This document shows, piece by piece, positions 172 through 41,258 of a stretch of 64,000 nucleotides of DNA. The stretch is from the NCBI RefSeq assembly GCF_022539665.2, contig NC_081331.1, forward strand, positions 7,998,001-8,062,000, written 5' to 3'. The notes below the pieces were generated by a model. That model saw only the letters and a program-made list of their open reading frames with translations. It was not told the DNA's origin and made no database searches. The number at the start of each line of letters is the position of its first letter. The first letter of the stretch is position 1. The translations under genes were made by a program, and so were the position numbers. The DNA is from Daphnia carinata (Eukaryota).

Positions 172-666
172 TTAAAGGCATCTCAGCCTCTTAGCACGAG
201 GGTCATCCTCGTCGTCATCCTCGCCGGATCTCTTATGGGACGCGTCCCAGTGGCACGATGTCCACCCGTAGAGCGGTGGGTGGCGCCCTTCAGGGTCCAG
301 ATCCAGGATCGCCTTCAGGGTGTTCACAGCGTCATGCCATTCCTCCATGTAGATCCGGTTTAGGAGAATTCCGGTCAGCTTATAGGTTCTGTCCTGCAGC
401 TGTCTTTTATCGCGAGCCATTCCCTGGAACCAATCTTCTTCATCTTGCTTCTCGTGGACTTCCACTCGGCTGAGGTCCACGGGCTCCTGCATCTCGCATG
501 GAGCCGGCGACTCCCTGGGAACGGTCTCCGCGTCGTCGGATGCCGAGGGTGAGACCAAGTTTACGACGACGACCTCCGGAAAGGGCAGCGGAATCGCTAC
601 AATTGGGGTCCAGGTGCCGTCGATCTCGGCCTCGATGATGGCGGACTGTGGCTTGTTGTCTTCCAT
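172..666 (-). CDS. Retroelement accessory protein (164 aa), 'LDLDP-RHP' family, copy in E1
   Basis: ATG-initiated intact ORF directly 3' of pol. WHDAVNTLKAILDLDPEGRHPPLYGW aligns with the ORFs at 14406-14846 and 15761-16183. C-terminal PRAKRLR basic cluster. Confidence 0.8.
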   Translation of the reverse strand: MEDNKPQSAIIEAEIDGTWTPIVAIPLPFPEVVVVNLVSPSASDDAETVPRESPAPCEMQEPVDLSRVEVHEKQDEEDWFQGMARDKRQLQDRTYKLTGILLNRIYMEEWHDAVNTLKAILDLDPEGRHPPLYGWTSCHWDASHKRSGEDDDEDDPRAKRLRCL

Positions 667-765
667 GGTACGGTGATTCAGAGCAACTACAGGTGGCGGA
701 ACGGATAGTTCGTAATTGCTTACTGAGAGTATGAGAAGTTGTGATCTGTTTCACTCGGCGCACGG

Positions 766-824: not shown

Positions 825-3800
825 CTACGTGTCGTCCCTGTAACGAATCGGCTTCCTCCTATTTCGCTGAGGGCGTCGGGTGACACTTTCTTGATGCGAC
901 AACGCTGATGTCCCATCATCCAAGGGTTCAGATTGCCGAAGGTCGAAATCACTGGCGGCGTATGTAGGATTGTTTTCGGAGAATGCCACTGGATGCTGTG
1001 AGTCAATCGTCACATCGCAATTGTCATTTGAGGACACTCGCCCTTCGATCGGCAGATGAGGCTGTCTGATCATATTGTCCCCTCGCACTAATTGATGGCT
1101 CACCGAATCGGTGTCTAATGTCAGCTCTGGCACGGCCTCGTTCACAACACTGGGTAGGCTTTCGGCCTCGTCCTTGAGCTCGTGTGCACACGCGTCTGCC
1201 GTTTGGGTTGCAACCGACTTGCGGAATCGGTTCTCAAATTCCGAGGGTGTCTCGAATGACGGGCAATGTTCATCTTTCCATAGCATTGTCTCGTACAAAG
1301 GTTTTAATCTATTTACATGCGTACGCTGGCATACGTACGAGTTATCAGCTATATCGACCGTATTATTCGAATAAACTTTTACCACTCTATACGGTCCTTT
1401 ATATTTTGACGTAAATTTCTTGCTATCTCCTTCCTTGACTACTCGAATATCCAATAACACCCGATCGCCTATCACATATCGTTTTTCTTTCGCGCGCTTG
1501 TTATATTGTTCCCTTTGGCGCTTTCTAGCTTTTTCGCTTTCCTCTCTAACTCTTTGAAAACTATAACGCAAACGTTCTGTCAGATTCCCAACATAGTCAG
1601 AAGAAGATTTGAATGTTTTGGGAGATGCATTAAGAAATTCGTTAATAGGAATGTTTGGGTCCCTACCGTGAAGTAAATAATATGGAGTGTCCAATGTCGA
1701 AGAGTGGACCGAGCTACGATACGCAAATAAAACATCATCTAATATTTCTTCCCAATTGGCATGCTCGCCGTCTTTTAATTCTTTTCTTAACATAGACGTT
1801 AAAGTTCGATTGAACCTTTCCGTCTCCCCATTACTAGCAGGGTTATAAGCGGTGGTTAACCTCTGATCGATCTTCAATTTTTTACAAAAATAGCGAAATA
1901 ACTTGGACGTGAAATTTGTCCCACGATCAGAAATAATTGCCTTAGGCATACCATGTCTAACAATAACAGTTTTATATACACATTCTGCTGTTGTCTGAGC
2001 AGTTTGATCTTTTAAAGCAACAGCCTCAACCCAACGGCTAAAATAATCTGTAATAACTAAAATGTAACTATTACCATTGGGCGAAACTGGTGTAATAGGA
2101 CCCAGAAAGTCCATTCCAATTACATCAAAAGGAGCCTTCGCAATTTCGTGCGGATGCAAAAGTGCTCGATAGGGTGAAGCAGTGTTGGCTATGCAAACTT
2201 CACAAGCCCGGCAATATTCTTTAACATCGCCTCTCATGTTGGGCCAATAATAATTATTTTTGACTTTCATATAGGTCTTATAAAATGCCAAATGTCCACC
2301 CATCGGTGCGTCGTGTAATTCTTTAAGCACTAGTTGGCGTAGGGATAATGGCAAAACTAATTGATGATGGGTGTCGTTCCTTTTATTACTCTGAGATGGC
2401 AGTTCCCGTCTATAAAGTATTCCTTCAATTACCTCAAAATATTCAATTTCCTTTACCCACTCGGGTTTGGACAATGTAAAAATTTCATCCAGCTCTCCTT
2501 CTTCCAGATAATTCTTGATGGCTATACAGAGGTCGTCCTCCTGTTGTTTTTCGCAGATCAATTTAATATCCTTCCCAGTTTGAATGCTAGCTATTTTTAA
2601 TCTAGACAAACAGTCCGCGTTCTGGTGAACACGGCCTGGCCTATATTTTAATTCATAATTTGTTGCAGCCAATAAAATGGCCCACCTCCCTAACCTTCCA
2701 TTATTATCCTTCTGATTTTTAAGCCACTGCAAAGGACGATGGTCACTAATTATCTCAAAGGGTTTATCCAAGAGATAGTGACGGAAATGTTTAATGGCAT
2801 CCACGACTGCCAGAGCTTCTTTTTCGGTTGTACTATACTTCATTTCCGCCTTAGTTAACTGCCTACTGGAGTACGCTATCGGGTGCTCTTGGCCGTTTTG
2901 CATTTGAGATAAGACGGCCCCAATACCATAGTCGCAGGCGTCAGTGAAAAGAATAAATTTTTCATTAAAATTTGGATATGCGAGAACCGGCGGTGTAACC
3001 AGGGATGTCCGTAACTTTACAAACGCGACTTGTTCTTCGTCTCCCCAGGTAAAAGGTCTTTTACTAAGATCTTTGTGAGTTAACCTAGTCAGAGGTTTTG
3101 CGATTGAACCAAAGTTGGGAATAAATCTCCTATAATAACCTGCTAACCCGAGAAATGACCTCACCTCATCGGCAGAAGTAGGCGTTTTGTAATTTAATAT
3201 TTTGTCGATTTTTCCAGGATCAGGTTTAATTCCCTCAGTCGAAATGACGTGGCCCAAATAATTTACAGAACTTTTAACGAATTGACATTTCTTAAGCTTT
3301 AATTTTAAATTGGCAGTTTTCAATAAGGTAAAAATTTCCCGAATATCTTTCAAATGATTATCAAAAGTATCCGAAAATATAATGACGTCATCCAAATAAG
3401 CTAACGCTTTATGTCCCAAAACGTCTTTCAGTACATAATTCATTAATCTTTGAAATGTGGCAGGTGCATTGCACAAGCCAAACGCCATCCTTTTAAACTC
3501 GTAAAGATTGTTTTCTACTACAAAAGCCGTTTTTTCAATGTCTGGTTCATTCACTTGAATTTGCCAGTAGCCGGAGGCCAAATCGAGGGTCGTAAAAAAT
3601 TTCTTCCCATATAATTTATCTAACGTTTCATCAATCCTTGGCATAGGGAATGAATCTTTTTTTGTAATGCTATTTAATTTCCGATAATCAACGCAAAACC
3701 TCACGTCTCCGCCTTTCTTCTCAACCAAAACCACAGGTGACGCCCATGGAGAATGAGAATATTGTATTACATTTGCGTCCATCATTTCCTGCACTTTATC

Positions 3801-4801
3801 CTCCAGTATCTTTCTTTGGTGGTTCGTAACTCGATAGGGTCGTTGCCGGATAGGGCCTCTTCCTTGGGTATCGATCGTATGCTTAATGAGATTAGTGCTC
3901 CCTAATTCCGACTCTTTTGTTGCGAACAAGTCATGAAAGTCATTTAATAAACTTGAGAGCGGAGCTTGAAATTCAGCGTCGACTTCCGAAATTAAAACTA
4001 GCTCCCGTTTTTGTGTAGGCTTTTCCTCTGGTTGACATAAGGCAATCTTACCAATTACGTTATGAATTACTTCGATTTGGCCTAAGGTTGTATTCCTAGG
4101 AAGTATGACTTGACTTAACGAATGGTTTTCGACCATAATTTGATATTTCCCATCTCCCGATACAGTTCCAACAAATTCTTCAATAAAAATACCGGCCGGC
4201 AAATCCTCTGCTGGGGTAAAAATAAATGTGCTATTAGGGGGGACATACGGAAATGAACCTGTCATTTGCGCTGCGATTACGAGCGCCGTCTGACGAACTA
4301 GCGTCGTCTTTTTGACCGTCGTAATTGCCATGTCTGGTGCCCTAGAGATGGCTGATCCCTGCTCATCCCTGGCTAAGTAAATACGTTTGGCTTCTCCGTC
4401 AAGCCGAAACCCGTGTTTCTGGATTGCATCCCATCCAAGGATACAGTCTTCAGAAACACCATTTGTAACAATGAACTCTTGCCGTAAAACGGACTCTCCG
4501 TAACGTACGGGCAATGTAACTTTACCCAGCGTATGCAACTTGTTATCTCCCACATCGTATAAATCGAAATCAAGCTGACTGCAGGTTACTTGATTTCTCG
4601 AGGGAAGCTTTTGAAATATCTTCTCGTGAATTATGCTTCTAGACGCGCCTGTGTCAAATAATGCCTGTAAAGGGATCTGAAAAATTTGTAATGGAATTCT
4701 GGGGGTCGATTCGTTTATTATTGTTGTTAATTTCGCAACTTGTCGGGATTTCAACTGAGGTACCCTATCAACTGACCCGAAGTTACAGTTGATACTTATT
4801 G
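825..4801 (-). CDS. pol: Pol polyprotein of E1 (protease, reverse transcriptase, RNase H, integrase), expressed by -1 frameshift from gag
   Basis: LFDTGAS protease; LDLASGYWQI and YLDD RT motifs; FTDACDYGIGAVL RNase H; HHCC zinc finger (LHDAPMGGH...CRACEVC); integrase D-D-E (GMDF, ISDRG, ETERFN); GPY motif. Gypsy domain order, no internal stops. Confidence 0.96.
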
Positions 4802-4808
4802 GTTTCCC
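4743..4808 (-). promoter_or_regulatory. Programmed -1 ribosomal frameshift signal (G GGA AAC plus downstream hairpin/pseudoknot), E1
   Basis: GGGAAAC at 4808-4802, 7-nt spacer, 9-bp stem TATCAACTG/CAGTTGATA (4794-4766). Loop TCGGG is complementary to downstream CCCGA (4747-4743). A -1 slip leads into the pol frame (PISINCNFGSVDRVPQLKSRQ). Confidence 0.85.
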
Positions 4809-6067
4809 TGATGCTGAGGGGGACCCGGAATATTAGGCCTACTGGCCCTATACTTAGGACAATTGTTTGATTTATGGCCGATCTCACGGCAAGAATAGCA
4901 AATTGGGGGCTGTGCTTGTTCCAACATATACCGTTGAAATTTACGGCACTCCGATTGTGTGTGACCCCGAAACCCACAATAGTTGCAAGTTATTACATTC
5001 TCAATAGGCCCATTGTTCGGATTATGACCAGATCTTGGCGAAGATGGCATATAATTTGTAGGCCTATTTTGGTTCTTATCCCCTTGATACGGGTGGGTGT
5101 TACTCTTAGGGAAAGGTGGAGGGTTTGTCTTCCAGTTAACTTTCCCGATTGCCGTTGCCTGTTTGAAATGATACCCTTTTTTTATATGGGGCACCCGCCG
5201 AAGAAGAAACATTATCCTTCTTATTAATTTGGAGTTGTTTGACCGCCTGACTGAGCTCGCGCAGCGCATCTTTAATTTCATCCTTCTCCGATTTCGGAGT
5301 GTCTACGATCTTGTTCCCTTGACGTATATTCGCGACGGCCTGATTGACTATTGCTTTCTGATCGATTAACATCTGCTTAATCTCATGCAATTCTGTATTT
5401 TCTGCACCTTTCGACTCGTCGATCGCCCTAACAAACTCATGTTTTTCACGGTCAGATTCGAGTGCTTCCAAGCGAACAGCATAAACGCGTGTCGTTGCAA
5501 CCAGTGCGTTAAAGTCGCCAAATTCTTTGTACTTAACTTTCGCCTGTAACTTGGAATCCAAACCTTCGATAAATTTCTGCATGAGAATAATTGAAAAGGA
5601 ACGCTCGATATGGCCTACAGGATACGCTTTTTTAAAGATTTCCTGAAGACGATGAGCATAATCAATTATTTTTTCTCCCGGTTTCCGTTTAGCCTTATTA
5701 AATTTCTTAATATACAAGTCAACGTTTTCGTCCCCGTGAAAGTGATCAAGTAAAGCTTCTTTAATAGACGTATAGTCATGAGGATGATCTTTGACAATAT
5801 TTTGCACTACGGAAAAAGCCTTATCAGTCATTTTTGCTCGCAACATCTGAATAACCTTCTCCTCTGACCATCCTGACCCCTCAACTACGCTTTCAAAGGA
5901 TTCGATCCAGGAATCAAAACGAGAAATTGGACTCCCTGAAAAAGAAGGAAGCAGTTGTAAGCGCGCGAAGGTATGTTGGGTAGTCTGAAGATCGTTCAAG
6001 TCGTTGACCGTGGCTGCCCGTGATGGGGATGAAGAACTAGCCATGTTTGGATTAAATGAAGGGAAAT

Positions 6068-9000
6068 TTATTGTTCCTCGTTGTGGATTCGGAGGGAGTT
6101 CTGGAATGCCACTCGAAATTGCCTGATGCCCTCTGGTATCTCTTCCGGTCGTCTGGAGGGTTGGATGTGAGGAACGATTCGATTGATTGATCGTCTGCAA
6201 CGTTGGCGTCTGCTGTGTGTCCGCCGTTCTTGCGAGGTTGTTTCCGACAGCGGCGATGTGTGTTGGGCCGGTGTGGCTTGTAGTTGGGTAATGTTCGTTT
6301 GTATGCACAACAGCGCTTGTTTCAATCGTATTTCCGTTTGCGTGATTAGTGGTTTGATGTTGTTGGCCTCCTGTGCGTTGACTGGGTTGTTGGCTTTCGG
6401 AAAATTGTTCAGTTTGTCCAAGAGAAGTTGAATTTCTGGTTGCAGCACCTCCAAATTGTTGATTAAGTTTAGTTTTTCCAAGTACGACGCTAGGTTGTTC
6501 ACTTCCTTCAAGAATGCTCGTTGTGATGCCAGTAAGATTTCTTCCAGATGGATTGATATGTCGCTCACTACCCCTAGTAGAACAAGATATCTTCACACAA
6601 TCTTAAAGATAGCGATACATCTATGGCAAATACATCTTAGATATCTTACTACTATCTTTGTACTAGCTTTGTACTAGCTAAATGTCATGGGGTGGAGATA
6701 TCTTGTTTATATATCTTACGAATATCCTAAAAGCCACTTTCTAGATAACTGTATAGGGAACTTATCGCTCTAAAATAAATAGTAAATACAAAAAAAAGAA
6801 TACATTTTTTAAAGACAGTTTATTTTTAAAATCCGAATTACAATTGGCAAAGAAAAACAAGTTACAAACTGTGACAGGAAGACATTCAAGTCTTATTATT
6901 AATTAGAATCGCTGCTGTTGTCTTCCGCCGCAAGTTTCACTTGTTCTGCCACAAAACGCCCTTTTGCATTATGAAGATACGATTTGGTTTCAGCGACGAA
7001 CACTTCTTTTTCCAGATCTTTAAACTTTGAATTGGAGATGATTCTAACTAAATATAAAATATTTTTATTTAACTACTTATTTTACTCTTTACTTATATCT
7101 CTTCTCTATATAAAATGGTTACCTCTTACTAATTCCGTTATACGACAAGAGTGGATTCCTTTTTTTCCCATTCCGCCGTTTACTCTCTTATCACGTCTCC
7201 CAAGCCAATTTACATCCTTAGAGAGTGAATCTTCAAATACTGTTCTCCACGCTCTTTGTACACATAGTCGCCTTCAGAATTTTTGGAATTCTTTTTCCTG
7301 AAAGACGGATTTTTCGGACTATCTATTCATGAATGAAAGAGGAGTTTAACATACTAAATGAAATATATAAATTATTGAAAACTTACTAGCTTCTTCAGAT
7401 TTTCATCTTTTTTAAGAATTTTTTCGAATGCTTCCAATACTAAGTTTTTTAATGGAAAAGAAGCAATGCCTTCATCTATTTCCTCAATGCATTCGTCAAC
7501 TGGATTAATTTTTTTATCGATCATAGACAACTTTTCATTAATCTTGGCAAGGTCAGAGAAGTATTTCTCTTTGTCGTGATTGACTTTCTTTGGAATGGGA
7601 AGAGACGATGGAGAATCCGTAGCATAATAAGACGAAGAATCTCGGGATGTAGAAGGGCCGGAACTACTTTCAGCATCTAAAAAAATATGGTTAAGGATTA
7701 TACGTTTAAAATGAAAATATTCTGATTAGTTACGAAGTTGCAGATGATGTGATTTTTGTGACATTTGGCCTATAGCTTGTTATTGCTCCAATATTTTGCT
7801 GGCTCGGAAATTCAGGGACAGTTGATGGTGTTTGATAAGAAGAATTCATTAAATGTGAATTATAGTTCCAGTACGGCTGCTGCATTCCCCAGTTGTAATG
7901 ACCACCATTGTAATTAAATTGCGGATGCATATTTTCTGATATGTTCACAATAAACAAAATAAAGAAAAATATGTAAAACAGTATTGAAAAAGAGGTTGAT
8001 GAAAGAAAGGTATTTTTTATGATTACCGAACTGGTGGGTTCCATATGAGTCGTCGGAATTACCTATTTAATGCACAAGAATATTTTGAAAAAAAAGGTTT
8101 AGCATTAAACTAGAATTAACATTACCAGACTGAATCGACTGTTGAATTTGCATATCCACAGGAGACGACGAATCTTCTGTAATTATAGAATAAGGAGAGT
8201 AAGGTAATTATAGAAGGAGTGCACTGCACATTTAATCCGAATAGTAACGGCGAACAAAAACACGATATAATAGACAAGACAACAGTAACTGAACCAAAAA
8301 TTAAGAAGTAAATAATATCATTATTACCAGGTTGAAACGATTGTTGACTTGGCATATGCACAGGAGACGATGTATCTTCTATAATTATAGAATAAGTTAG
8401 GTAATTACCGCAAGAGTGACCGGCACATTTGTCCGAAAAGAAACGTGAAACAAAAATAAACGATATACTACGAGACCACAGTAACTGTACCAAAATAACG
8501 AAATAAGCAGCATAATTACCAGGCGCATTCAATGAGAGAACTTTGGCATTGGAACGCACTATTAACGCTTCCAGACTTGACATATCGCTATGAGGTAACG
8601 AAAATTTTTCAACTTAATGAAAAATTGCGTTGCATGAATGTTATGCAACAATGTATTAAATATTATAATTACGAGACGAATTTGACGAAAGGACCACAGC
8701 ATTAGAAGACAAACGTTTATCAGAACTGGAGGAACCTCTCTTACTAGTAGAAGCAGCAGCAATGACTAAACGAAATGACAATAAGACTTGGTTTATAGGT
8801 TTGTTAAAAGTTCAAAATCAATTATCCTTTTTAGTTGACGTTGAAGCATTGCTGGATTGTTTAGAAACCAACAAGGCTCTAGGAGGTATTGGAAGCAAAG
8901 TAGAAGTGGCCATTCCTTTGGCAGAGTTTGTATGGGAGGCTTTCTTAATCGTCTTTCCTTTGCTGGGTGCTGATTTTTTAGGTGGGCTGAGAGACTCTCC

Positions 9001-10129
9001 CTCGCTGTCTATTTCTGTTGTTGATTGTCCAGGTATATTTAGTTTCTTCCTTTTAGGGACTCGTTTTCCTCTGCCTGAGTTTTCTTGATTAAGAATGGGC
9101 AGGCCAGTTTCAACACGGGGAAGACTTGTTGTTGCTTCTTCATACGTGTCTTTAAAAAGGAAGCAATATTGTTACATTAAACATACAAAATGAAGTAGTA
9201 ACGCAAATTACCAAAAGTTCCAATTATTTGGAAATCCTCGTATCTCTGCCATGTTTCCTCATCAGGTGGAACGCCACACTACAAAATTTGGATTTGATGT
9301 GCAGCTGAATAACTATCATTCGGTAAATAGAGAATGTCTTCCTCTATCCAATTTTCTGCCACTACATAAAGCCAGTTATCTATTATAGGTAATATTTTGG
9401 GAACTTCAACAATACAACAACAATACAAAGGTATTGAATATCTCATAATATATCTAGCAGTTAGCTGGTAGATATCTATAAAGACATATAAAATTGATAT
9501 GACTTTTTGATATACAATAGATATCTTAGAGAACTAAATACATCGGCTAGACATATATATATCTTAAAGATAGGAGTAAGATATCTTGTTCTACTAGGGA
9601 CGGTGATTATCTCCACGTATCTGCCGTCCTCGTCGGTGGTTTCGATATCTTTTCTCGGAACGAACCCGAAAATTCTTCCCGCTCTCGTTGGTGTGATCTT
9701 TTGCAGATCGATGAGATTGTAGATTTGACCGTGTAGACAAGTCAAAACCTGTCTCGCGTGCCGGGTGAAAATCCCCTTGAGCTCCGTCACAACCTCCCCT
9801 ATCTGCTTCTTCGTCTTCTTCGGTATCGGTCCACTGACTTTCACTTCCAGAATGGATGTCAGGTACTTCAGGAGAATCCTCGGTTGTTTCCAATTCGTCT
9901 GCGTCGGCTGTTCCACGTGGTAATTCCTCTGGACGTCGAGCATCAACTGGACAAGGTGATCCCAGATTTTCGGGTCGCTTGACTGAAAATCCTTCTCCCT
10001 CTCCTTGAGGCTTTGGAGGGTTAGTAATAGGAACGGCAGCTGGCTTTTCGGTGACTGAAAGATGTTGTTTTCGTTCTTTTTGACTTCTTGCAAAAGATGC
10101 TTGAGACTCACGTTGAGCTGTTCTTCCAT
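6068..10129 (-). CDS. Overprinted +1-frame ORF X within the E1 gag 5' extension (343 aa reconstructed; split by the DNA transposon)
   Basis: 10129-9600 plus 6569-6068 = 1032 nt open frame. Colinear with E2 ORF 21512-22561 (SQLPxLLLTLxxLKERExDFQSxxPxIW...). Arg-rich C-terminal tail. Confidence 0.78.
6572..9599. mobile_element. Non-autonomous DNA transposon, probably CMC/EnSpm (CACTA-type)
   Basis: Perfect 22-bp TIRs CCCTAGTAGAACAAGATATCTT, 2-bp TSD AC (6570-6571 / 9600-9601), subterminal AGATATCT repeats. Precise removal restores both gag and ORF X frames. Confidence 0.88.
6899..9446 (-). pseudogene. Spliced accessory gene of the DNA transposon (DUF4806-like / EnSpm ORF2-like), with stop codons
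   Basis: Exon 1 MRYSIP...VVAENWIEEDILYLPN..*..PPDEETWQRY..IIGTF spliced to DTYEEA. C-terminal NWLGRRDK and ETKSYLHNAKGRF. Pattern typical of CMC-element accessory proteins; no transposase seen. Confidence 0.5.
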
Positions 10130-10645
10130 TGGCTGCTCTCTTTTCCGAAAAGAAATTCGAAACGGCAATCGAGAAAGATTTGGTGGGAGAAGTTTGCTGG
10201 GAAACGGACCTTCGTTTTGGCGAAAGATGTCCTACAATTCTGTCTAAAAGGGAGGGTGACTTCGTAAAAGTCGAGGTTTTCTCTGTGCGCTGGACCTGAG
10301 GTTTGCGAGCGTTCGAAATGTCTAGACCAGGTACCGACTCGTATGCGGAATTTGATCTTAACTTCCTCTTCTGAGAGCTATCAGGAATCGCCCGCGGTTT
10401 TAAAACAGGGGAAGCGGACTTTTTAATAGCGTTTGTTTTCCTATTGGAAGTCTTACACCCCGTAAACTTATCAGCAACGGCAGACTTAGCAGTGGGTAAT
10501 GCTTCAAAATTGATAGCTCTCGCTACAGATTCGTCAATAGGTGTAGTGGCCTCAACAGAAATGTTAGTAGCGGCAACAGGCGTTCGAGAAAGTTTAGGCC
10601 TACTGTGGAAAATATTATCAGTCATTGTGGGTGAGTCCGAGAAAT

Positions 10646-10656
10646 CGCTGCCACCA
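10646..10656 (-). other. Primer binding site complementary to the 3' end of tRNA-Leu
   Basis: TGGTGGCAGCG 3 nt after the LTR end; complementary to ...CGCTGCCACCA, the 3' end of eukaryotic tRNA-Leu(AAG/TAG). Confidence 0.82.
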
Positions 10657-10659
10657 TTA

Positions 10660-11373
10660 TGTAAAGTATGCTCTCCTCGAGAGAGACTAGCTTTACGAAT
10701 TAATAATGAGTCAAACTCGGAGGCGATTTTTACCCACACAACGATTATATTTTCCAAGTAAGGTAAACGATACAAAAGTCAGTTTGGAATAGGGACAAAA
10801 AGGAGTTGGGCTAAAGAAAGGGAAGCCAAGTGTAATACGACACCGCAATGTAAACTTACCGCGGTGGCTCGAGCGGGGCACGGGCGAAGATATAAGAGAG
10901 GGCGGCTGTAACAGGACTTAGTCGGCACGTGCTTAAAATAATATGGGTGAATTGAACACTTAGTCAGGCACGCGACACAGCTCAATTCCCTGGTACAGAG
11001 TTACCGATAGGAATGTACTAGCTGAACTTGAACTCAACCTGTAAGAGCCAAAGGCACACCGACAACTGAACTCTTTCAGATTGTAGTTCACCACGAAACC
11101 TCGCATATTGCACAACAATTAACAACTGCGCAATTACATGTCGCAATCAGTGAAATTTGATACATCATTCTGATGGTGCAATACAGGTCATCGCATAAAC
11201 AGCCAATCACAATTGTTACTAAGCGGCTCGGCCGATGTAATATGATACGCTACTGCGCAATTTATATTGCGCCGCTACAATTGCGCAATTATACTATTGC
11301 GTGATACATGAGTCATCAATAAAGTTAAAACGGAAAGGTATTTTGAATAAAAATATTTATTTGCTTCGTTACA
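10660..11373 (-). repeat. 5' LTR of E1 (714 bp)
   Basis: Begins TGTAAC, ends TTTACA (TGTAA/TTACA inverted ends), followed by the PBS. Its start coincides with the point where the env frame of E2 is cut. The second LTR is not in the window. Confidence 0.82.
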
Positions 11374-12907
11374 ATAGTCTCCCACCAAGATGTATAACTT
11401 CCGACACCAGATGCCGTTACAAAAATGTTTGTCGCACTAGGTCTTTGACGTAAGGTATATTCCGATGGCGGGTGTTCGTTGATCGCGGTAGCCATATCGG
11501 CCATGATGTTCATGTGATTGAGCATGTTGTCGGTATATGCTGGATTACTTTGATCCACGTAGTCGAAAAACTCGACGTTTTCGTAGCGAAAAGAGTATGC
11601 GAGCGTCTGCTCCGGCAACACAATTGTGGTTTCAATTAATTGCCAGGTGTTGTTGCGGAAAGCGTAAGGTTTGTCGTTAAAGTTTACAAATCCGTTTGTC
11701 CAATAGCAAGGGGAATATTTAACAAGTTCCCAGCCATCGAGGTTAATTGTATAATTTTGAAATTTTGGTTGCGGTCCGCAAGAAGTCAAAATAGTATCAA
11801 ATGTTACATTTAAGGCTTTACACTGTATCAGTACAGCCGTTTTACCGAAAGCTTGTAATTTTGTGCACTTTGGTAATTGTAGTTGAGAGGCTGCTAACCA
11901 TCCATTATATTGAGCAGTTGTAACGGCTTTTTCATGTTTGGCTTTGCGACCATCGCACTGTAATAATTGAATTTGACTTGCCAATTCGTTTTCATGATCG
12001 GTTAGTTGATCCCGAATATATTGAATATTCGCCGGTATGTTTAAATCTTCAGCGCTAGATGGTGCCGGAGGCTCCGATGTTGTTGTTGAATTTTTCATGA
12101 TGGCTGCCGTTGTGACAAAGAGTTGTGATTGGCAAAGGATTTCAAAGGAAGAAGTCCTATTGGAGCAATTTTTCTGTACTGAAAAACAACGTGATATCGG
12201 CAACAGGTGAAAGTCTAGTTGATTTCGGTCGTCTTGAAGTCTGAAAATTTGTTTTTCTCCAGGCAATTGCATCAACTTGCCGATACCTTCTTCGATAAGC
12301 CGGGTAATTGCTTTAGTTTTCTGTGTGTAGGTTTTGTCCCAAATCAGAGTTAAATGATTATGTGACAAATTTCCCGACGTAGCGGAAGCAATTCCGATAG
12401 GTGTTGAAAAATCCGCATTCTCCTTTTGTTGGAAAAGTTGAATTTTATCGAGAACACAGTTTAATATTTCGGAATCGATTGTTTGCAACCAATATCCAGA
12501 AATATCGGGTTCATTGTCGAACACAAATTTGCCATCCGAAAAAGTCATTCGTTGATTGTCGCACCTTTTATTGTTAATCATTTCGTTGCACTCAGCAGGT
12601 GTTGTATCGATGGAAATTTTATCTGGCACGATCACTGTTTGTCCGAAAAAATTCATTGTAATACGTCTTATATTTTTCCAGCGCGCACACATAATCCCGG
12701 AAACTTGATCGCAGCTCGTTCTTCACTATATACGGCATATTTTACACCGATGGCACGATTTTCGGTAGATTTCGGTTGACAATTCGCGTCAGAGAATTGA
12801 ATAATTCCCATTTTCGACGGTTCCGAACAATCGCAAACGGTTGTTTCAAATGCTCGCGAGTGCAACCAGTGAAGGCACAATAGCAGCAGAAATGGAAATA
12901 GAGACAT
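11374..12907 (-). pseudogene. env: env-like glycoprotein, probable class III viral fusogen (herpes gB / rhabdovirus G-like), ~510 aa visible
   Basis: Signal peptide MSLFPFLLLLCLHWLHSRA, Cys-rich ectodomain, N-glycosylation sequons (NRT, NST, NLS, NVT, NYT, NNT). GxMC..W...T..FFG...C segment and NIQYIRDQLTDHENELASQIQLLQC helix. 1-nt deletion near 12693; cut by the E1 LTR after SWWETI. Confidence 0.75.
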
Positions 12908-12909
12908 TT

Positions 12910-12935
12910 CTAAATACGGAAGAATATAAAAAAAC
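12910..12935 (-). promoter_or_regulatory. Putative splice acceptor for a subgenomic env mRNA
   Basis: TTTTTTATATTCTTCCGTATTTAG|AA ATG: pyrimidine tract and AG 2 nt before the env start codon. Confidence 0.55.
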
Positions 12936-13461
12936 ATACAAGAATAAAAGAGAACAATGTAACTGACAAACATATAAAACTTTATCATGTGGGTGTTATA
13001 ACATAGAATCAAACACGAGAAGAAAAGAAGTAAGAAAAACGAAAGTGAAAAATAGTCTACGGCTTTTGGAAAGGTCAACTTACTTTCCCGTCGGCTTTTC
13101 CTAGTTAGCTACGGCAAAAAGGGAAGAAAAATATAGGGCACTAGAATATAACGGTTTTTTCATAATAACTAGTATCGTTGGAAAGAGGAAAAGATATACT
13201 TAATTATCGAAAAGAGAAAAAAATAAAATATAATATAGTTTAGCGGGGAGGACGAGAAGAAAAACGTTCAAAAGTTTACGGCGGAAAAGTTTTTTTTTTT
13301 TTTGCCGTGAAAGGTCACGCGCAGTGTTCGAATTTTTCCTAAGTTCTAACAAGGCGGGAGGGATAGCGCATAAAGGAAAAGTATACTAGGGCACGCAAAG
13401 AAAAACAGTTGACGGAAATAATTGGTATATTACCTAAACTTTTACGCCAGGTGTAATATAC

Positions 13462-13530
13462 TAACTAATAGCTTTACGGTAGCGGTCTCAGCTGTGATGC
13501 CAAAGGTCTGAGGTTCGAATCCCCAGTTTG
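13462..13530 (+). ncRNA. tRNA-like Pol III-type element (A box plus B box), antisense within E2
   Basis: TAGCTTTACGGT (13469-13480) and GGTTCGAATCC (13512-13522) with T-arm stem CTGAGG/CCCCAG. No convincing acceptor or anticodon stem. Confidence 0.45.
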
Positions 13531-14405: not shown

Positions 14406-14846
14406 TTAGTAGGCTGGTGGATAGCGATGTTCTTTGCAATGGAGGCACAGGTCGTCATCCGCCCAGCTTTCGGCCGACCAGTCGAAGAGCGGCGGGTGTC
14501 GATTGGCTGGATCCAAATCCAGTATCTCCTTGAAGCGCTCCGTCGCTTTCCTCCACTTCTTCAGCTCGATGCAGCGCATTAATCCTTGGGTAAGGGCATG
14601 GGTGACCGCATCCAGCTCTTCCTGAAGCTCCTGGACTCGTTCTCTACAGGCCTCCGCCGGGTTTTGTTCTCGTTCGGCTGCAGCTGGGCCCGGGGCTGCG
14701 GCTGCGACTGGTGCTGCGGCTTCTCCCGGATGTGCGATCGCAGCGTCCGTATTACCTGGTTCCTCAGCAACGCGGGCCTGTTGCGGATGCTGACGGCACG
14801 CCCGTTTCGCGGCGGGTCCTCCTGCACGGTTATTGTTTTCGGCCAT
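14406..14846 (-). CDS. Retroelement accessory protein (146 aa), 'LDLDP-RHP' family, second copy in E2
   Basis: Intact ORF; WRKATERFKEILDLDPANRHPPLFDW motif; N-terminal PAAKRACR; TATATAAA at 14942-14935. Confidence 0.8.
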   Translation of the reverse strand: MAENNNRAGGPAAKRACRQHPQQARVAEEPGNTDAAIAHPGEAAAPVAAAAPGPAAAEREQNPAEACRERVQELQEELDAVTHALTQGLMRCIELKKWRKATERFKEILDLDPANRHPPLFDWSAESWADDDLCLHCKEHRYPPAY

Positions 14847-14934
14847 TGTGCGATCTTGGATTTTGGGGTTGTTTTTCTAACGTCTTCGAGCTCTGGAAGG
14901 ATCGCGAGTGTTGGGTGGAGGAGATGTGTGCTGA

Positions 14935-15760: not shown

Positions 15761-16183
15761 TTACAAACGGTCATACCAATCGCGCCTTGGCCTTTTGTTA
15801 GCTGTGTTCCACAGCTCCGACGACCAGTTGTAAAGCGACGGATGGCGTTTGGCTGGATCTAAGTCCAGAATCCTTTTCAGAGTGTTAACTGCGCTGGCCC
15901 AATCTTCAGCGAAGAGCTCAGCGTTAAGTCTCGTGGTGAGTTTTTCAGTTTTCTCCTCGAGGCGTCGTTCGTAGTTGCGCCGAGCCAGATCCCAAGAATC
16001 TTGGCTAACCTGGTCTGGGGATTGAGGTCTCTTCTCAACCAACTCGACCGTGTCGTCTGCCGTTGGTTCCCAAGAAAAATCTGCAGTGGGCTCCGTTGTT
16101 GTCACCACTTCGTTAGCTTGCACCTCGTCACAAGTCCCTTCGACGGTGACTTGTTCGTGTTGAACGCTAGTTTGGTTTTCCAT
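15761..16183 (-). CDS. Retroelement accessory protein (140 aa), 'LDLDP-RHP' family, first copy in E2 (positional ortholog of 172-666)
   Basis: Intact ORF right after pol; WASAVNTLKRILDLDPAKRHPSLYNW; C-terminal KRPRR; TATATAA at 16289-16283. Confidence 0.8.
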   Translation of the reverse strand: MENQTSVQHEQVTVEGTCDEVQANEVVTTTEPTADFSWEPTADDTVELVEKRPQSPDQVSQDSWDLARRNYERRLEEKTEKLTTRLNAELFAEDWASAVNTLKRILDLDPAKRHPSLYNWSSELWNTANKRPRRDWYDRL

Positions 16184-16282
16184 CTTACTTTGATGATGCT
16201 TTGCGGTTTGTATATAAATTTGTTAGAGTTGTGACTACAACGAGTTGACGGAAAGATGTGGCTCTTTTCGATCTACTCGCTG

Positions 16283-20310: not shown

Positions 20311-22905
20311 TGACGCTGAGGGGGACCTGGAATATTCGGCCTATCGGAGATCCTGAACTTGGGACAGTTATTCGATTTGTGTCCGATTTCACGACAAGAA
20401 TAACAAATTGGAGGCTGTGCTTGTTCCAAATTATGACGTTGGAATTTACGGCATTCCGATTGTGTATGCCCACGAAAACCGCAGAAATTGCAAGTTATTC
20501 CATTTTGTGGAGGTCTATTTCTCGAATCATTAAAAGGTCTCGAAAACGAGGGCGTGGACTGTGTAGGTCTATTGGAGGATCCCGCATGTTGGTAAGAATT
20601 GGTGTTATTATTGGACCGATGAGGAGGTCTCCAATTTCTGTCTTGGTTACCGCTATTGGTTTGGAAATAAACTTGTTTCTTATAAGGGTTGCCTGTTGGA
20701 GAAGAAGAATAATCTTTCTTGTCCATTTGGAGTTGTTTTACTGCTTGCGTGAGTTCATGAATTTTTATTCCCTTGACCAATAGAAGCAACGACATTATTG
20801 ACTATCTCTTTCTGGTCGATTAACATCTGCTTGAGTTCCGTCAAATCCGAATGTTGCGTGTCACACGACCCATCGATTGCCCTAACGAATTCATGTTTTT
20901 CCCGATCTTTCTCTAAAGCTTCCAAACGAACGGCATAAATACGCGTTGACGCAACAAGCTCGGTAAAGTCGCGAAATTCCTTATAACGAACTTTGGCCTG
21001 CAATTTAGAATCCAACCCCTCGATAAATTTTTGCATAAGGATGATTGTGAACGATTTCTCAGCATAACCTTCTGGATACGCGTCTCGTGCAAGCGGTGCG
21101 CATAGTCGACAATTTTTTCGCCTGGTTTACGTTTAGCCTTATTGAATTTTTTAATATAGACATCGACGTTTTCATCCCCATGAAAGTGATCAAGTAACGC
21201 TTCTTTAATAGACGCATAATCATACGGATGTTGCCTTATAATGTTTTGGAGTACTGAAAAAGCCTTATCTGACATTTTAGCTCGCAGCATCTGAATGATC
21301 TTTTCTTCTGACCATGATGCCCCATCAACTATGCTTTCAAAAGATTCCAGCCAAGAGTCGAAGCGAGAAATTGTACTTCCCGTAAAGGAAGGGAGCAATT
21401 GTAGGCGCGAAAAAGTGTGTTGGTTTGTCTGAAAGTCATTTAAGTCGTTGACTGTGGCTGCACGTGAAGGAGAATAAGATTTGGCCATGTTGGTATCGAA
21501 AATGGGAGGATTCAACGTCTTCCGCCTTGGATTCGGAGGGTGTCCTGAAATGCTCTTCGTAATCGCCTCAGTTGCGCTATCAGATCTTCCTGCTGGCTGG
21601 ATTGCTGGGCTCGAGGAGGGTGTTGAGTGCGTGACTGGCTGGAAGGCCGGTTTCTTTGGCGTGCTCGCCTTCTCCTCGGAATGCGTTCCGACAGCGGCGA
21701 TTCCCGCGGACTCGGCGTGGTTTGCTGTTCTTCCTGGAATCTCGGAATGTATGATAGCAGCTGTCTCAATTCGTAGGGAGCCGCGACGAGTGTTTCCAAG
21801 ATTTCCTTCGTTATCCGCTGTCCGTCCGGTTGCACCGATGTCTGGAAGTTGTTGAATTTGGTCTGAAGCGATGTCAGTTCCGGCAATAATCCCTCCAAAC
21901 TGCTTATGGACTGAACTTTTCTTAGGTAAGGGACCAGGTGGAGGATGTCCTTGAGGAACTTCAGCTGGTACTCCCGCAGGGTGTCCTTTAGGTAGGTTGA
22001 GAACTGCGATATCTCGATTGCTAGAAGGAAGTATGTCCTGTCCCCGAGGTTGTTGAGCAAGCTTTCCTTGGGGGCAAAGTTGAAGAGGTACTTTTCCTTC
22101 GCCGGCGTGAATGTCAGCAACTCGACGATGTTGTAAGTCTGTCCTAGTAGGTAAATCGTAAACTCCCTCGCATAGGTTGTGAAGATTGCTTTCAACGTGG
22201 CCACTTGGTTCTCCGCAACCTGTGCCGTTGTCCTGGTTTGTCCAATTGTTATCGTTTCCAGAATTGTTCCCAAGGCTTTCAGGAGTGTCTTCGGGTTTTT
22301 CAAATCCGGTGTCACGTTGGCTTGGTATTGGTACTGCAGCCGGATTGTTTGCATCAACGATCGTAGTTGTTCCCAAATTAACGGATTGGTTGACTGGAAA
22401 TCCAATTCCCTCTCCTTGAGGTACCTGAGCGTCAGTAGTAGGGACGGTAACTGACTCGTTGGAGCCGGGAATATTCTCGATTGATTGGTCGTGATCTCGT
22501 GGTATATGTGATGGAGTGCTCGAGAGAAAACTGGTCTTTGATGTGTTTCCCACAGGTGATTTTATGGGAGAAAAACGAGAAGCTAACCTAGCATAAACAG
22601 ACGGTGCGGGCTGAGTAGGTGTAACGGAAGCTTTGATACGGCCCCAAATTTTCTTAGTGGGAGTTTTAACTAATGGGGCTACGGCCTCATACGCGGTGTT
22701 AGACCTCAATTTCTTCAACTGTGTTTTATCTGTCTGTACTTTAGGAGTTAAAACAGGAGAGGTAGATGGTTTAATGGCTTCTGTTTCTTTGTCTGAAGTC
22801 TGACTGCCTTGAGAAGAATGCGGAACGGTCGCGGTAGAGGCTGACAATTTTTCAAAACTAATCAATTTAGCAATCGTTTCGTCATTGATTTGCACTACGG
22901 GAGGT
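20298..22905 (-). pseudogene. gag: gag of E2, 5'-truncated by the foldback element, two frameshifting deletions
   Basis: INDETIAKLISFEKL matches E1 IDESVARAINFEAL. Capsid-like region and two CCHC knuckles. Frame breaks near 21085 and 20765. Confidence 0.88.
21512..22561 (-). CDS. Overprinted +1-frame ORF X within E2 gag (open for ~350 codons, no upstream ATG)
   Basis: Frame open from the stop at 22564-22562 to the stop at 21514-21512. Homologous to E1 ORF X throughout; ends in SPRESPLSERIPRRRRARQR. Confidence 0.78.
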   Translation of the reverse strand, partial: NHLWETHQRPVFSRALHHIYHEITTNQSRIFPAPTSQLPSLLLTLRYLKERELDFQSTNPLIWEQLRSLMQTIRLQYQYQANVTPDLKNPKTLLKALGTILETITIGQTRTTAQVAENQVATLKAIFTTYAREFTIYLLGQTYNIVELLTFTPAKEKYLFNFAPKESLLNNLGDRTYFLLAIEISQFSTYLKDTLREYQLKFLKDILHLVPYLRKVQSISSLEGLLPELTSLQTKFNNFQTSVQPDGQRITKEILETLVAAPYELRQLLSYIPRFQEEQQTTPSPRESPLSERIPRRRRARQRNRPSSQSRTQHPPRAQQSSQQEDLIAQLRRLRRAFQDTLRIQGGRR

Positions 22906-23052
22906 CGGAGAAAAAGGCCCAGACGAAAAAGGCCCAGACGAAAAAGGCCCGCGAAAAAGGCCCAGACGAAAAAGGCCCATACGAAAAAGGCCCACTTTTT
23001 TCCAAATTCAAAAGTGGGCCTTTTTCTCCATTGGACTGGGCCTTTTTCTCCG
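22906..23052 (+). repeat. Left terminal array of 15-bp (CCCAGACGAAAAAGG) repeats with inner inverted copies
   Basis: Six AAAAAGGCCC units followed by two GGGCCTTTTT units; mirrored at 29364-29510. Confidence 0.9.
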
Positions 23053-26000
23053 CTCAATTTCCATTTTCTTACATACTTTATGTTTGTTTCGAAAATTGTA
23101 TTTCCCACCTTCTATTCCGTGGAATTTGGAATGTACAAAAGTTGCTGAAACCGTGATCTTCTTTAAGGTTTGCAGAGATCAAACAATGTTAGCGTTTGTG
23201 CGCTAGTTAATCTTTGATTATTTATTCGGTTGCAATCTAATTTCGGATTATATTAGTATTTATATATTGCTAATATCCCGTTAAAAAAAGTTCATTTTTC
23301 ACAATTTTTGTTTATTGAACTACCATCGCTTTTTTAAATATAATACAAAAAATAAATGTTTTTCGCACTTAGCCTTGTTCTGTCCACCCTCTTTCATTAT
23401 TCCCCCAATCCCCAGTCCATCTCCCATATAGCTTCTTTTTGTCGATACTTATGCCATAGGTAAAGACCACTGATTCGTTGGGAATACGGAAACTGAATGA
23501 GTTCCGCGGGGCTTTTGTGGTTGCTGGGAACAAAAATATATGTTACCACGAAGACTAGTTTATTATCATTAACATTTGATAAATAATGTTTATAGGAATA
23601 ATAGTACAAACTTGAACTATCGTCTGAAGCAAGGACCAAAACAAAGACTATTGTAATCCAATATTGATTCTAATACCATTTATTCTTTATACATTTTCAA
23701 TTCTTTTAACAATTACAAAGAGCCCAATAAATATATTAAAATCATAACCTACTGCTATAAATGATTTTGTTCGTTCTTCGTGTCCTGTTTTCACCTTTTG
23801 TACATTTTCAAGCAGCTATTGATTACCTAATTACACATGACATACTACATTGAGATATAAGGAAGCTTTACACTTTACGTTAGCAAAGCTACTAATAATG
23901 ACAAATCAATTTTCTACTACGACGGATTTTTTTTTATGAGAGTCTCTTATTAGTGAAGACACTAAACCTTTTAAATTGAATCTAAGATTTTTTTTCTTCA
24001 AATTTTCCACGATCATGGAAGGCATATCAGTGTATTTTTCTATAAAACTATCACGACATGGCTGCACATGAAAGAACAAGAGTTTCGCTCATCCATTAGT
24101 CAGTATCAGTCTTTCATACGGTAAATTTGCCTTTTTTCTTTAGTTTATTCACGTTATGTTCTTTCTTTTCAGTTTTATTTTTCTTAATGTTGGCTTTTCC
24201 CTTTTTCTGTTGTTATTCCTTTCTCTTTTCCTTTTCTTCGATTCGTTCAGCGCAATTTATGTTACTTTCTGATTTGATCTCGTTCATTAATCGATTTGGC
24301 AAGCAATTCCACATAGTCTTTTACCTATTGCAATACAGAAAGGTTAAAAGTTTTGAAGATCTTACAAATATTTTTGTCAAATTGAAAGTTTACCTGAAAA
24401 CCTTCAGCTATTTGCAGAGCACCATTTCATGCCTGTTTCTATTCCATGCTTCTTGCATTCTCAGCTTCAGCTTGGCCTACCAAGATATTCATTTTTGGTT
24501 TAAGTTTTATTTTCTTTCATTTTAATCGTTGCCACTTCTGGATATAAAGTGGTCTTTTTCAGAATGGGTGAGGAATTAGATAGTTCTCCAAAATCAAATT
24601 TGCTGGAAACTAGGCAGCCTTCACTGTTAAAAATTGGTGTTGCCAGTGTACTTGCTAGTCTTGGTTGAGGAATTTCTGTTTTAACAAACTCTGAAAGACC
24701 AGAGGTTGATGACACAGATACTGCCTTGGTGGCTCGAGCATGTTTGGCAATTCAGGACCTCTTCTTCTTACTTTTTCTTTTTAATTTCTTCTTCATTCCC
24801 TCTAACTTCCGTTTAAATTGGATTTTCGTTGCCTTATCAGACAATTCCAGCTTTTCCTCTGAAAATCAATGGAATAAACTGGCCGGTCTTCCTTAAATGT
24901 AAATGTTAACACATACCTGTTAAGTGTGAGGCGTTCATTCAGTTTATGTTCTTTCTTCTCAGTTTTCTTTTTCTTAATGTTGGCTTTTCTCGTTTTCTGT
25001 TGTTATTCCTTTCTCTTTTCCTATTCTTCGATGCGTTCAGCCAACTTCTTTTTACTATCTGATTTGATTTCATCTTGTTTCATAATAGATTTAGCAAGCC
25101 ATTCCACATTGTTTTTTACCTATTGCAATACAGAAAGGTTAAAATTATTTAAGATCTTACAAATATGTATGTCAAATTGAAAGGTTACCTGAAAACCTTC
25201 AGCTGTTTGCAAAGCATCTTTTCATGCCTGTTTCTCTTCAATACTTCTCACATTCCAACTTCAGCTTGGCCATCCAAGATTTTCACTTTGGCTTTGAGTT
25301 TTTTTTTATCGTTGCTACTTTTCAATCTAAAGTGTTCTTGTTCAGAATGGGTGAGGGATTAGATAGTTCTCCTAAATCAAATTTGCTGAATACTAGGCAG
25401 CCTTCGCTGTTGAAAATTGGTGTTAGCGGTGTACTTGTTGGTCTTGGTTCAGGAATACCTGTTTTGACAAACTCTGTGGGATCAGAGGTTGATGACACTG
25501 ATGCTGCCTCGGTGGCTTGTGCAAGTTGGGCAATTCAGGACCACTTCTTGTTATTTTTCTTTTTTAATTTCTTCTTCTTCAATTTTTCTAACTCCTTTTA
25601 AGTTTGGTTTTCATTGTTCTATCAGACAAATCCAGCCTTTTCCCTGAAAATAGATGGAATAAGCTGGCCCGTCTTCCTTAAACGTAAAGATTAACACATA
25701 CCTGTTAAGTGTGAGGTGTTAGCTGCTAGACATTCTTCCTGTTCAACACCAACCTTATTGCTATTGAGATCGTCAACTGTAGATACACTTTCAATTGGAA
25801 TGTTGGTCAATAAGCTAGAAATCATGATTTTTTGGGTTCTCATTTCCTATTAATTTTGTTTAGACGACACTTTCAAGTTCTTGTTTTCTCTTTTTCCATT
25901 TACAAAAACTGCCTCTCATATTATAACCTTTAAACTTTATTATTATATACCTTGATTTCTCAACATTATCACTGATCACTCCATAGATCAAACTATACGA

Positions 26001-26691
26001 AACAAGTCTATTGTTATTTTCTTCAGGGAACGGCATTTTCAAGTCAAATCTAGCGTCAGGACGCCACAAACAATGGCGGACGGTTTTTAACATAAAATTT
26101 TTAAAATTTTTAATTCTTTTATTACAAATTCAACAAAATTTAGTTCCTTTGTATAACAATAATAATGAATTATAATAATAGAACAATAACAAAGGAACTA
26201 AATTTTGTTGAATTTAATAAAGCTTTAGCTAAAAGTTTTAATAACAGCTTTCCACCGTCCGCCATTGTTTGTGGCGTCCTGACGCTAGATTTGGCTTCAA
26301 AATGCCGTTCCCTAAAGAAAATAACAATAGACTTATTGTTTCGTATAGTTTGATCTATGGAGTGATCAGTGATAATGTTGAGAGATCAAGGTAAATAATA
26401 ATAAAGTTTAAAGGTTATAATATGAGAGGCAGTTTTTGTAAATAGAAAAAGAGAAAACAAGAACTTGAAAGTGACGTCTAAACAAAATTTGTAGGAAATG
26501 AGGACCCTAAAAATCAAGAGCCTTATAAAACGCGAGGGTCCATTGACATCGTCGCTCTTAAAAAGCAACTCTCTCCTGAAGAGTTTTTCATTGCTAGCTT
26601 ATTGACCAACATTCCAACTGAAAGTGTATCTACAGTTGACGATCTCAATAGCAATAAGGTTGGTGTTGAACAAGAAGAATGTCTAGCAGCT

Positions 26692-29363: not shown

Positions 29364-29510
29364 CGGAGAAAAAGGCCCAGTCCAATGGAGAAAAAGGCCC
29401 ACTTTTGAATTTGGAAAAAAGTGGGCCTTTTTCGTATGGGCCTTTTTCGTCTGGGCCTTTTTCGCGGGCCTTTTTCGTCTGGGCCTTTTTCGTCTGGGCC
29501 TTTTTCTCCG
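29364..29510 (-). repeat. Right terminal array of 15-bp repeats
   Basis: Reverse complement of 22906-23052. Confidence 0.9.
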
Positions 29511-36880: not shown

Positions 36881-36887
36881 TCCTGAT

Positions 36888-40764: not shown

Positions 40765-41258
40765 ATGGAATAGAATTTTGAAACGTAACATTAAAAAATG
40801 TCAAGCAGGTACACATTGCGTGTTTCTGTCTTTAGCGCGAAGACGAAGGATCCAGAAGGAAGGAAAGGTACAAAAGCGCTTCCTTAGTTGTTCTCTGGCG
40901 ATTCCTTGGACGACGACGAGCCTCGGACGACGACGATTCCTCGAACGACGGCGATTCCTCGAACGACGGCGATTCCTCGGACGACGGCGATTCCTCGGAC
41001 GACGACGATTCCTCGGACGACGACGATTCCTCGGACGACGACGATTAAAAACGACGACGATTTTCATGACGATCAATTCCTCGGACGACGGCGATTCCTA
41101 ATGACGACGGCGATTCCTCGGACGAAGACAATTCCAGCATTTCACCTACGAATGTTGAACGCCAACGAACAGACGACGAAGCTGCTGAGATTAGCGGATT
41201 GGTTGAAGCAGATGATGGTAGTAATTTGGGAAGCGAAGATGAAGCAGGTAAACTGAGT
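40765..41258 (-). repeat. Inverted duplicate of 63508-64000+, including the 18-bp minisatellite
   Basis: Near-identical reverse complement (ATGGAATAGAATTTTGAAACG... to ...GCAGGTAAACTGAGT). Confidence 0.9.
40907..41125. repeat. 18-bp minisatellite (GATTCCTCGGACGACGRC)n
   Basis: About 11 units, some degenerate. Confidence 0.9.

Follow-up and report, generated by a model that had tools for sequence, protein, structure and literature searches.

Overlaps of ~1 kb are characteristic of compact viruses; gypsy-type retroelements are usually annotated as gag-pol(-env) only. The Rev, Rex and Rem proteins of vertebrate retroviruses are encoded in an overlapping frame; they come from spliced RNAs and overlap the env-side genes. 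The C. elegans Ty3/gypsy element Cer1 encodes a protein, CERV, which is needed for the export of unspliced RNA and whose exon 4 lies in another frame of gag, a stop there leaving GAG unchanged (PMC10309623). Here we analyzed a 64,000-nucleotide (nt) stretch of Daphnia carinata (contig NC_081331.1, positions 7,998,001 to 8,062,000; hereafter the window), the minus strand of which carries two related Ty3/gypsy elements, E1 and E2. Both harbor an open reading frame (ORF) of about 340 codons, ORF X, in the +1 frame of the long N-terminal extension of Gag. ORF X had been noticed in an earlier sequence-only reading of this DNA, and our analysis confirmed it as a real, conserved second gene.

A second gene in the gag extension

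ORF X of E1 runs on the minus strand from ATG 10129 to the TAA at 6068-6070 in two pieces, upstream (9600..10129) and downstream (6068..6571), which are separated by a 3,028-bp DNA transposon (6572..9599); this insertion breaks both frames and has inverted repeats at its ends and a target duplication of 2 bp. With the transposon excised, both frames are open over E1, just as the sequence-only reading had stated: the gag frame has no stop in either piece, and the X frame has its terminal stop only. The same had been claimed for E2 (21512-22561), and the openness of the two frames there holds, with the homologous part of ORF X at 21512..22519 on the minus strand and its frame open to 22561. However, the E2 ORF has no start codon and its first ~14 codons are not homologous to E1; the short stretch that holds the X start in relatives is missing from E2. 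The third frame contains 10, 10 and 21 stops (E1 upstream, E1 downstream and E2), and immediately beyond the ORF the X frame itself is closed, with 7 stops in the 165 codons that lie upstream in E1 and 8 in 122 codons in E2. Aligned separately to the uninterrupted E2 ORF, the upstream piece of E1 matches at residues 15-177 (66/162 identical, z 40) and the downstream piece at residues 184-344 (53/161 identical, z 25). The +1-frame motifs quoted earlier are all present in the E1 and E2 translations. The proposed ending of X in a Ser/Pro/Arg-rich tail needs correction, as a conserved helix lies behind that tail and forms the C terminus.

The codon tests rest on the two copies plus protein-level checks, and the expected numbers of stops were obtained by synonymous resampling with one protein held fixed, using either pol or own codon usage. 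When X was fixed, 10 to 17 gag-frame stops per stretch were expected with pol usage and 4 to 6 with own usage; when gag was fixed, the corresponding numbers of X-frame stops were 3 to 9 and 2 to 6. None was seen in either frame, and the overlapping-frame codon analysis proposed for dual coding therefore gives 0 stops against 2 to 17 expected, the weakest single test being the E1 upstream piece with own codon usage (P 0.11). T before AA, AG or GA at X position 3 occurs in 0/103 cases in E1 versus 36/238 elsewhere (P 1e-6), and in 0/79 cases in E2 versus 31/255 elsewhere (P 2e-4). The control, pol, has T in 116/396 stop-forming contexts versus 302/938, with no avoidance, and the gag core likewise shows none. 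The stop avoidance is specific to stop-forming contexts, and both frames are open beyond chance in independent copies. A low T content eases open frames and would suit the rival explanation that only one frame is selected, the other being open as a by-product; the confinement of the avoidance to stop-forming contexts speaks against it.

Comparison of the two copies shows protein identities of 41% and 33% for the two pieces of X, versus 30% and 30% for the gag frame. Nucleotide identity at X codon positions 1, 2 and 3 is 192, 182 and 156 of 323 (1 versus 3, P 0.004; 2 versus 3, P 0.045), and the drop at the third position sits in the folded part, not in the tail. For distant lineages, we compared pairs of database proteins from the same DNA family, where X versus X gave z values of 13.0 and 11.9, and gag versus gag 1.5 and -0.6; in a closer D. 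magna pair, both were high (33.8 for X, 26.2 for gag). X is the more conserved frame, under the stronger sequence constraint, and because its similarity outlasts that of gag in distant lineages, its conservation is not a shadow of gag. Stops do not accumulate freely in the +1 frame, and selection on the gag frame does not account for the X similarity; the conservation of the second frame, together with its conserved start, is that of a dual-coding region. Hydrophobic residues make up 14-19% of the gag frame versus 31-38% of X, and the gag frame seems to be selected mainly for openness and low hydrophobic content.

Two of these comparisons would also suit selection on a single frame, namely, the loss of gag-frame similarity between distant lineages and the X third-position identity of 48%, which is as low as in part of pol (49%). 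Against it stand full-length Gags from different lineages, which are open over 822, 913 and 1117 residues and share a conserved first Met, as well as the X similarity that outlives the gag similarity. We regard the single-frame explanation as very improbable and largely refuted already, and we are highly confident that X is a real selected gene.

A full HMMER search with X gave 20 matches at E<=0.001, of which 18 were kept after P0052 and P0054 had been removed as repeat-driven. Ten of the matches were looked up; KZR97576.1 and KAK4017136.1 are from D. magna, and one clusters with a D. galeata Gag. An X profile search returned 19 rows, mostly of one lineage and overlapping partly with the HMMER set, and a word-index search with E2 X alone returned 0 matches. 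On the gag side 33 relatives were found, the named ones all from Daphnia. X homologues occur in at least three lineages, whose Gag cores are 44-46% identical to that of E1, and X has diverged to 24-40% identity among relatives.

These database proteins allowed a register test, made on proteins without DNA, which asks whether one stretch of bases could encode a long Gag and, at +1, an X protein as well. P0036 with P0003 was compatible at 159/165 positions (from Gag residue 100), P0027 with P0140 at 203/207 (from Gag residue 168), P0042 with P0093 at 350/363, and P0041 and P0047 with P0143 at 98/98 and 116/119, respectively, while off-register compatibility averaged 23%. The +1 segment is present in 14 of 19 database gag-side proteins and in 4 of 6 in a second set, the blanks including four relatives with a short extension (see below). 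The 822-, 913- and 1117-residue Gags share their first-Met motif with E1 ATG 10625. For X, 9 of the 12 database rows covering the N terminus have Met in the start column of E1 and 3 begin 12 columns earlier; it weakens this agreement that database start positions are partly set by gene callers, which favor Met.

Most database records show either the long Gag or X, and both together only as frameshifted chimeras. A programmed X-to-Gag frameshift was considered as the main reading and rejected, because the chimeras switch at scattered points (about residues 62, 97, 207 and 382), as random indels in two open frames would. In another group of proteins (P0083, P0147, P0149, P0159 and P0080), X is fused in frame to the Gag zinc knuckles and the capsid is missing; such fusions account for 4 of 15 members listed for one cluster of 19 and recur, joined in a similar way, in a second cluster that is 72% alike, and they may represent a non-autonomous derivative or a domesticated gene. 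Of 598 pattern matches in a metagenome scan, one was confirmed (L001, which has no more than 164 bases of upstream sequence), and no X occurrence was confirmed in the viral contigs scanned.

Predicted structure and possible function of X

The AlphaFold2 model of E2 X, built with 20 sequences, reached a predicted local distance difference test (pLDDT) of 78 and a predicted template modeling score (pTM) of 0.70; in it, residues 2-257 are helical, the linker that follows (about 262-306) is disordered, and residues 308-327 form the last helix. X is accordingly predicted to be a ~260-residue helical bundle, after which come the disordered, Arg-rich linker and a C-terminal helix that is free. For the E1 gag frame, a model of the first 341 residues, built with 12 sequences, gave a pLDDT of 48 and a pTM of 0.14 with one short helix, the low pLDDT being a value to which an alignment shallower than that of X may contribute; this frame is predicted to be a disordered spacer between the basic leader and the capsid. 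Both models agree with the sequence-only reading, in which X was folded and helical and the gag-frame product disordered.

None of 15 X family members reaches a curated Pfam family, the best match of X among solved-structure sequences has an E value of only 0.43, and Foldseek searches of the PDB and viral sets with the X model gave nothing at E<=0.001. A wide structural search returned generic helical matches only (the best, a designed repeat protein, with Z 10.5 and root mean square deviation 6.9 over 216 aligned residues), and the ESM Atlas held no usable match for P0002 or P0042. These failed searches show neither a new nor a known fold. The X model is without strands, which makes a G-protein-like domain unlikely, and no transmembrane segment was found in X.

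Two features of the sequence bear on function. The first is an Arg-rich patch, with 7 Arg in 15 residues in E1 (6191..6235, minus strand) and 8 in 15 in E2 (21647..21691, minus strand); the linker has 6-9 Arg per 15 residues in 13 of 15 sequences. The second is the C-terminal helix (6086..6118 in E1 and 21530..21562 in E2, both minus strand), whose sequence pattern has class-1c export-signal spacing. This hydrophobic 3-3-1 spacing occurs at the same C-terminal place, behind the predicted disordered linker, in 7 of 12 sequences and in five distinct lineages (E1, E2, P0037, P0042 and P0045); shuffling of the last 80 residues put the chance of each at 0.002-0.035. The export signal of HTLV-1 Rex is given as class 1c in PMC10674744.

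Given the Arg-rich linker and the C-terminal spacing, Rev-like appears to be the better of the two guesses, Rev-like and matrix-like, that had been made for X. Rev-type adaptors are built to this plan, a scaffold bearing a basic motif and an exposed export signal, and Cer1 with its CERV is a precedent among gypsy elements. In X, the Arg-rich linker would contact viral RNA and/or serve nuclear import, and CRM1 would be recruited by the last helix; an env-bearing element, which has to splice and also to export full-length RNA, would need a factor of this kind. Tentatively, we propose that the main job of X is that of a Rev/Rex-like adaptor exporting unspliced viral RNA from the nucleus. The X-knuckle fusions give a hint of work on RNA, and nucleic-acid binding by X is something that we infer only.

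Several observations weigh against this proposal. X is much larger than Rev or Rex, and it is not universal, since relatives with a short Gag extension seem to be without it. P0040 and P0080 have only 4 Arg in 15 residues, and counts of 7 and 5 Arg in 15 residues are reached in the non-coding third frame too, so that DNA composition may contribute to the Arg patch. With shuffling restricted to the last 30 residues, the chance of the class-1c spacing goes up to 0.03-0.15. Four of the 12 sequences (P0036, P0040, P0078 and P0079) have neither the export pattern nor the homologous helix, perhaps because they are truncated or frameshifted; P0048 has an eighth match at a different position, and the X-knuckle fusions have lost the pattern. 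The pattern was moreover noticed post hoc, any amphipathic helix tends toward such spacing, and export-signal patterns are mostly false (463 candidates versus 3763 false matches; PMC6488578).

The same features could be read in another way, with the Arg-rich linker as no more than a nuclear signal and with a host-binding motif in the last helix. X would then be a nested gene, laid out like paramyxovirus C, that antagonizes host silencing (Piwi-interacting RNA [piRNA] or RNA interference [RNAi]) in the nucleus or cytoplasm, or a transcriptional activator. Its fast divergence fits such a role, as do the further accessory ORFs of these elements and the architecture shared with P/C, where a disordered region encodes a helical overlapping-frame product via leaky scanning (PMC3934983). 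However, Pfam, solved-structure and fold searches revealed no similarity of X to any known suppressor or activator, and the pairing of Arg-rich and export-spacing elements fits an export adaptor more directly. We consider this alternative rather unlikely.

The matrix/core-like role named in the sequence-only reading was not borne out, for X lies outside the Gag polyprotein and has no fold match. A retroviral matrix is the N-terminal domain of Gag, whereas X has the +1 frame with its own start and stop. One may still imagine X as a structural or assembly factor, a folded membrane- or Env-binding layer kept at a fixed ratio to Gag by translation from the same RNA. The N-terminal 341 residues of Gag are predicted to be without a folded domain, co-translation would couple the amounts of X and Gag, the X model has long amphipathic helices, and the X-knuckle fusions resemble the matrix-nucleocapsid order. 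On the other hand, X is separated from Gag by its frame and stop, lacks a transmembrane segment and matches no matrix or core protein in fold searches whose only yield was generic helical matches, and the leader of Gag, with a net charge of +17 and an amphipathic helix of its own, is basic already. An assembly role is therefore judged improbable, and the export adaptor remains our preferred reading.

Start, expression route and origin of the overlap

The X start lies about 100-170 codons into Gag. In E1, the Gag leader (10130..10625, minus strand) begins with the conserved first Met at ATG 10625, 165 codons before the X start, and contains one predicted amphipathic helix. The 493 nt between the gag and X starts of E1 have no ATG in any frame (3.2-7.1 expected), nor do the 446 nt of its long terminal repeat (LTR) ahead of the primer-binding site (PBS), while the gag core, pol and env have 14-16 ATGs per kb. 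This AUG-free leader suggests leaky scanning, in which ribosomes scanning past the gag AUG would start X. It weighs against this route that the remaining leader of E2 has 3 ATGs in 367 nt (2.6 expected), that the zero-ATG leader of E1 has a P of about 0.04 under a stricter null in one copy only, and that an ATG at the LTR/PBS junction precedes the gag AUG in E1. The junction ATG opens an 11-codon frame (10624-10657, minus strand; one copy only) whose stop overlaps the gag ATG, and which could bias initiation toward Gag or toward X.

Splicing is a serious competitor, because a pyrimidine-rich run with several AGs directly precedes ATG 10129; whatever the role of X, an acceptor lying just upstream of its AUG would give the spliced RNA that encodes it. 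CERV is a product of splicing (PMC10309623), and the ATGs of the E2 leader also speak for this route. Several D. magna Gag gene models also skip a segment ending just before the X start, but these skipped segments may be deletions or gene-model artefacts, and an AUG-free leader as in E1 is not needed for splicing. We hold splicing to be possible though somewhat doubtful, and lean toward leaky scanning as the probable route.

The X stop lies 23 nt before a conserved internal Met of Gag in both E1 (6042-6044) and E2 (21486-21488), and in the long Gags P0003, P0004, P0026, P0140 and P0143 this internal Met is the first to follow residue 1. A short Gag form from the internal Met is possible on this sequence evidence. 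Inside the overlap, ATG depletion was not significant (0, 0 and 1 seen; 2.4, 1.0 and 1.0 expected), so scanning as far as the internal Gag Met is not supported. The full combination, a tri-cistronic gag RNA for long Gag, nested X and short Gag with X as an independently evolved Rev-like adaptor of a new helical fold, would go further than its parts, and we think it unlikely to hold as a whole.

In P0023, P0024, P0025 and P0103, some of them from D. galeata, Gag has the same first-Met motif and amphipathic helix, but its extension is only ~213 residues long, which leaves no room for X. These relatives fall on one side of a branch with support 98/97 in a tree of 28 rows, from which 5 of the 31 chosen database proteins were omitted for want of the anchor motif. 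A midpoint root would make the short extension a loss, the midpoint being a drawing root only. The view that X was overprinted on gag is not supported by these data, in which X is the more conserved frame and the short-extension relatives are without the whole block. Equally, X may be the older gene, with the gag frame opened across it.

Host elements and comparison with known systems

E1 and E2 are 78% alike across 4.9 kb of pol and gag core. Pol of E1 (825..4832, minus strand) has the Ty3/gypsy order of protease, reverse transcriptase and RNase H, then integrase. The capsid-like Gag core (5136..6044, minus strand) continues after a frame break at 4796-5302 with the CCHC knuckle, a Pfam scan of Gag giving capsid-like and CCHC matches; in pol order and Gag content, these are Ty3/gypsy LTR retroelements. 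The 5' LTR of E1 (10660..11373, minus strand) is a single LTR inferred from its TGTAA...TTACA ends and the PBS that follows (10645..10656, minus strand), with no second E1 copy in the window; an LTR end near 10830, the first guess, was dropped for 10660, where the PBS comes next. In the supplement of PMC13524379, the reverse complement of this PBS equals the Dpul_errantivirus_4 entry and the PBS is one base off the Dpul_errantivirus_3 entry, both elements being catalogued with an HSV/gB-type env.

The gene order of E2 is gag, pol, two small ORFs and an env-like gene. Its Gag core starts at the internal ATG 23 nt past the X stop (21084..21488, minus strand), and its gag-frame extension (21489..22886, minus strand) is open all along, the 5' end being lost to a large inverted-repeat element at 22906-29516. 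The env-like gene (11374..13108, minus strand, in two frames) is likely that of E2, with its 3' end cut by the E1 insertion. It has a weak Pfam match to Rhabdo_glycop_FD (E 0.024), no match among solved-structure sequences, and a resemblance by eye to the env row of Dpul_errantivirus_3 in the supplement of PMC13524379. E1 apparently inserted in the env gene behind E2 (11373/11374), cutting it ahead of any transmembrane anchor; the own env of E1 would fall outside the window. Both copies are decayed, E1 by the 3,028-bp insertion and the gag frame break, and E2 by stops in pol, frame breaks in gag and the loss of the 5' end.

Between pol and env of E2 lie two paralogous small accessory ORFs (15761-16222 and 14406-14876, minus strand), which have a homologue after E1 pol (172-750, minus strand; z 16-27) and no Pfam match. 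Together with ORF X, they form a gene set like that of complex retroviruses. The stretch at 13470-13530, between the accessory ORFs and env, looks tRNA-like by eye only, and ARAGORN found no tRNA gene in the window, this stretch included. The element that replaced the 5' end of E2 is foldback-like, with arms of ~2.9 kb that are 95% alike and internal repeats of ~790 bp. More inverted and direct repeats are found at 32700-44400 and 62700-64000, among them diverged units of ~75-80 bp around 32800-33470, 36300-36900 and 41400-42300.

Our literature search, which covered sources other than subscription journals and Repbase, found no account of an ORF nested in gag of Daphnia elements. Accessory genes that overlap others are an already known theme in retroelements, to which X adds a protein family without a Pfam or fold match in a fully nested overlap; with annotation limited to gag-pol(-env), standard pipelines miss such a conserved and, as predicted, folded gene. 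Among the closest known systems, Dpul_errantivirus_3 and _4 share with the elements of the window the host genus, the PBS of E1 (that of _4, one base from _3) and, by eye, the env of _3, and differ in that the available text and tables of PMC13524379 give the Daphnia errantiviruses GAG, POL and ENV only; the main text mentions no nested or accessory ORF, and its figures and data repository may annotate more. The sORF1 and sORF2 of the Drosophila MDG1 group are likewise 5'-end accessory ORFs of gypsy-type elements, and sORF1 is nuclear (bioRxiv 10.1101/2025.03.14.642691). Unlike X, they are ~110 residues long and upstream of gag, and sORF2 is a transmembrane fusogen, while X has no transmembrane segment.

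Paramyxovirus P/C resembles X in its helical product from the overlapping frame of a disordered N-terminal region, in leaky scanning among its expression routes and in a frame ancestry that is hard to decide (PMC3934983). It differs in belonging to negative-strand RNA viruses, no sequence or fold similarity was found, and the ordered part of X is N-terminal. The X/gag pair offers a clean case in which to study the accommodation of a folded frame by a disordered one.

X, like Rev, Rex and Rem, lies in an overlapping frame. It also shares with them a basic motif and export-signal spacing, of class 1c as for Rex (PMC10674744); X differs in overlapping gag, in being a predicted large novel bundle and in having activities that are so far putative. 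Cer1 CERV, also from a gypsy-type element, is likewise an additional protein, part of which is read from the gag region in another frame. It has 517 residues, a five-exon spliced RNA, three exons in frame with gag and a G-protein-like domain (PMC10309623), whereas X, compared with it by description, consists of a single continuous +1 ORF that starts at an AUG of its own, lies wholly within gag and is predicted to be all-helical. Export of unspliced RNA is an open problem for most invertebrate enveloped retroelements, and X could be tested in a laboratory crustacean; if X does export such RNA, it would be a further independent solution beside Rev/Rex and CERV.

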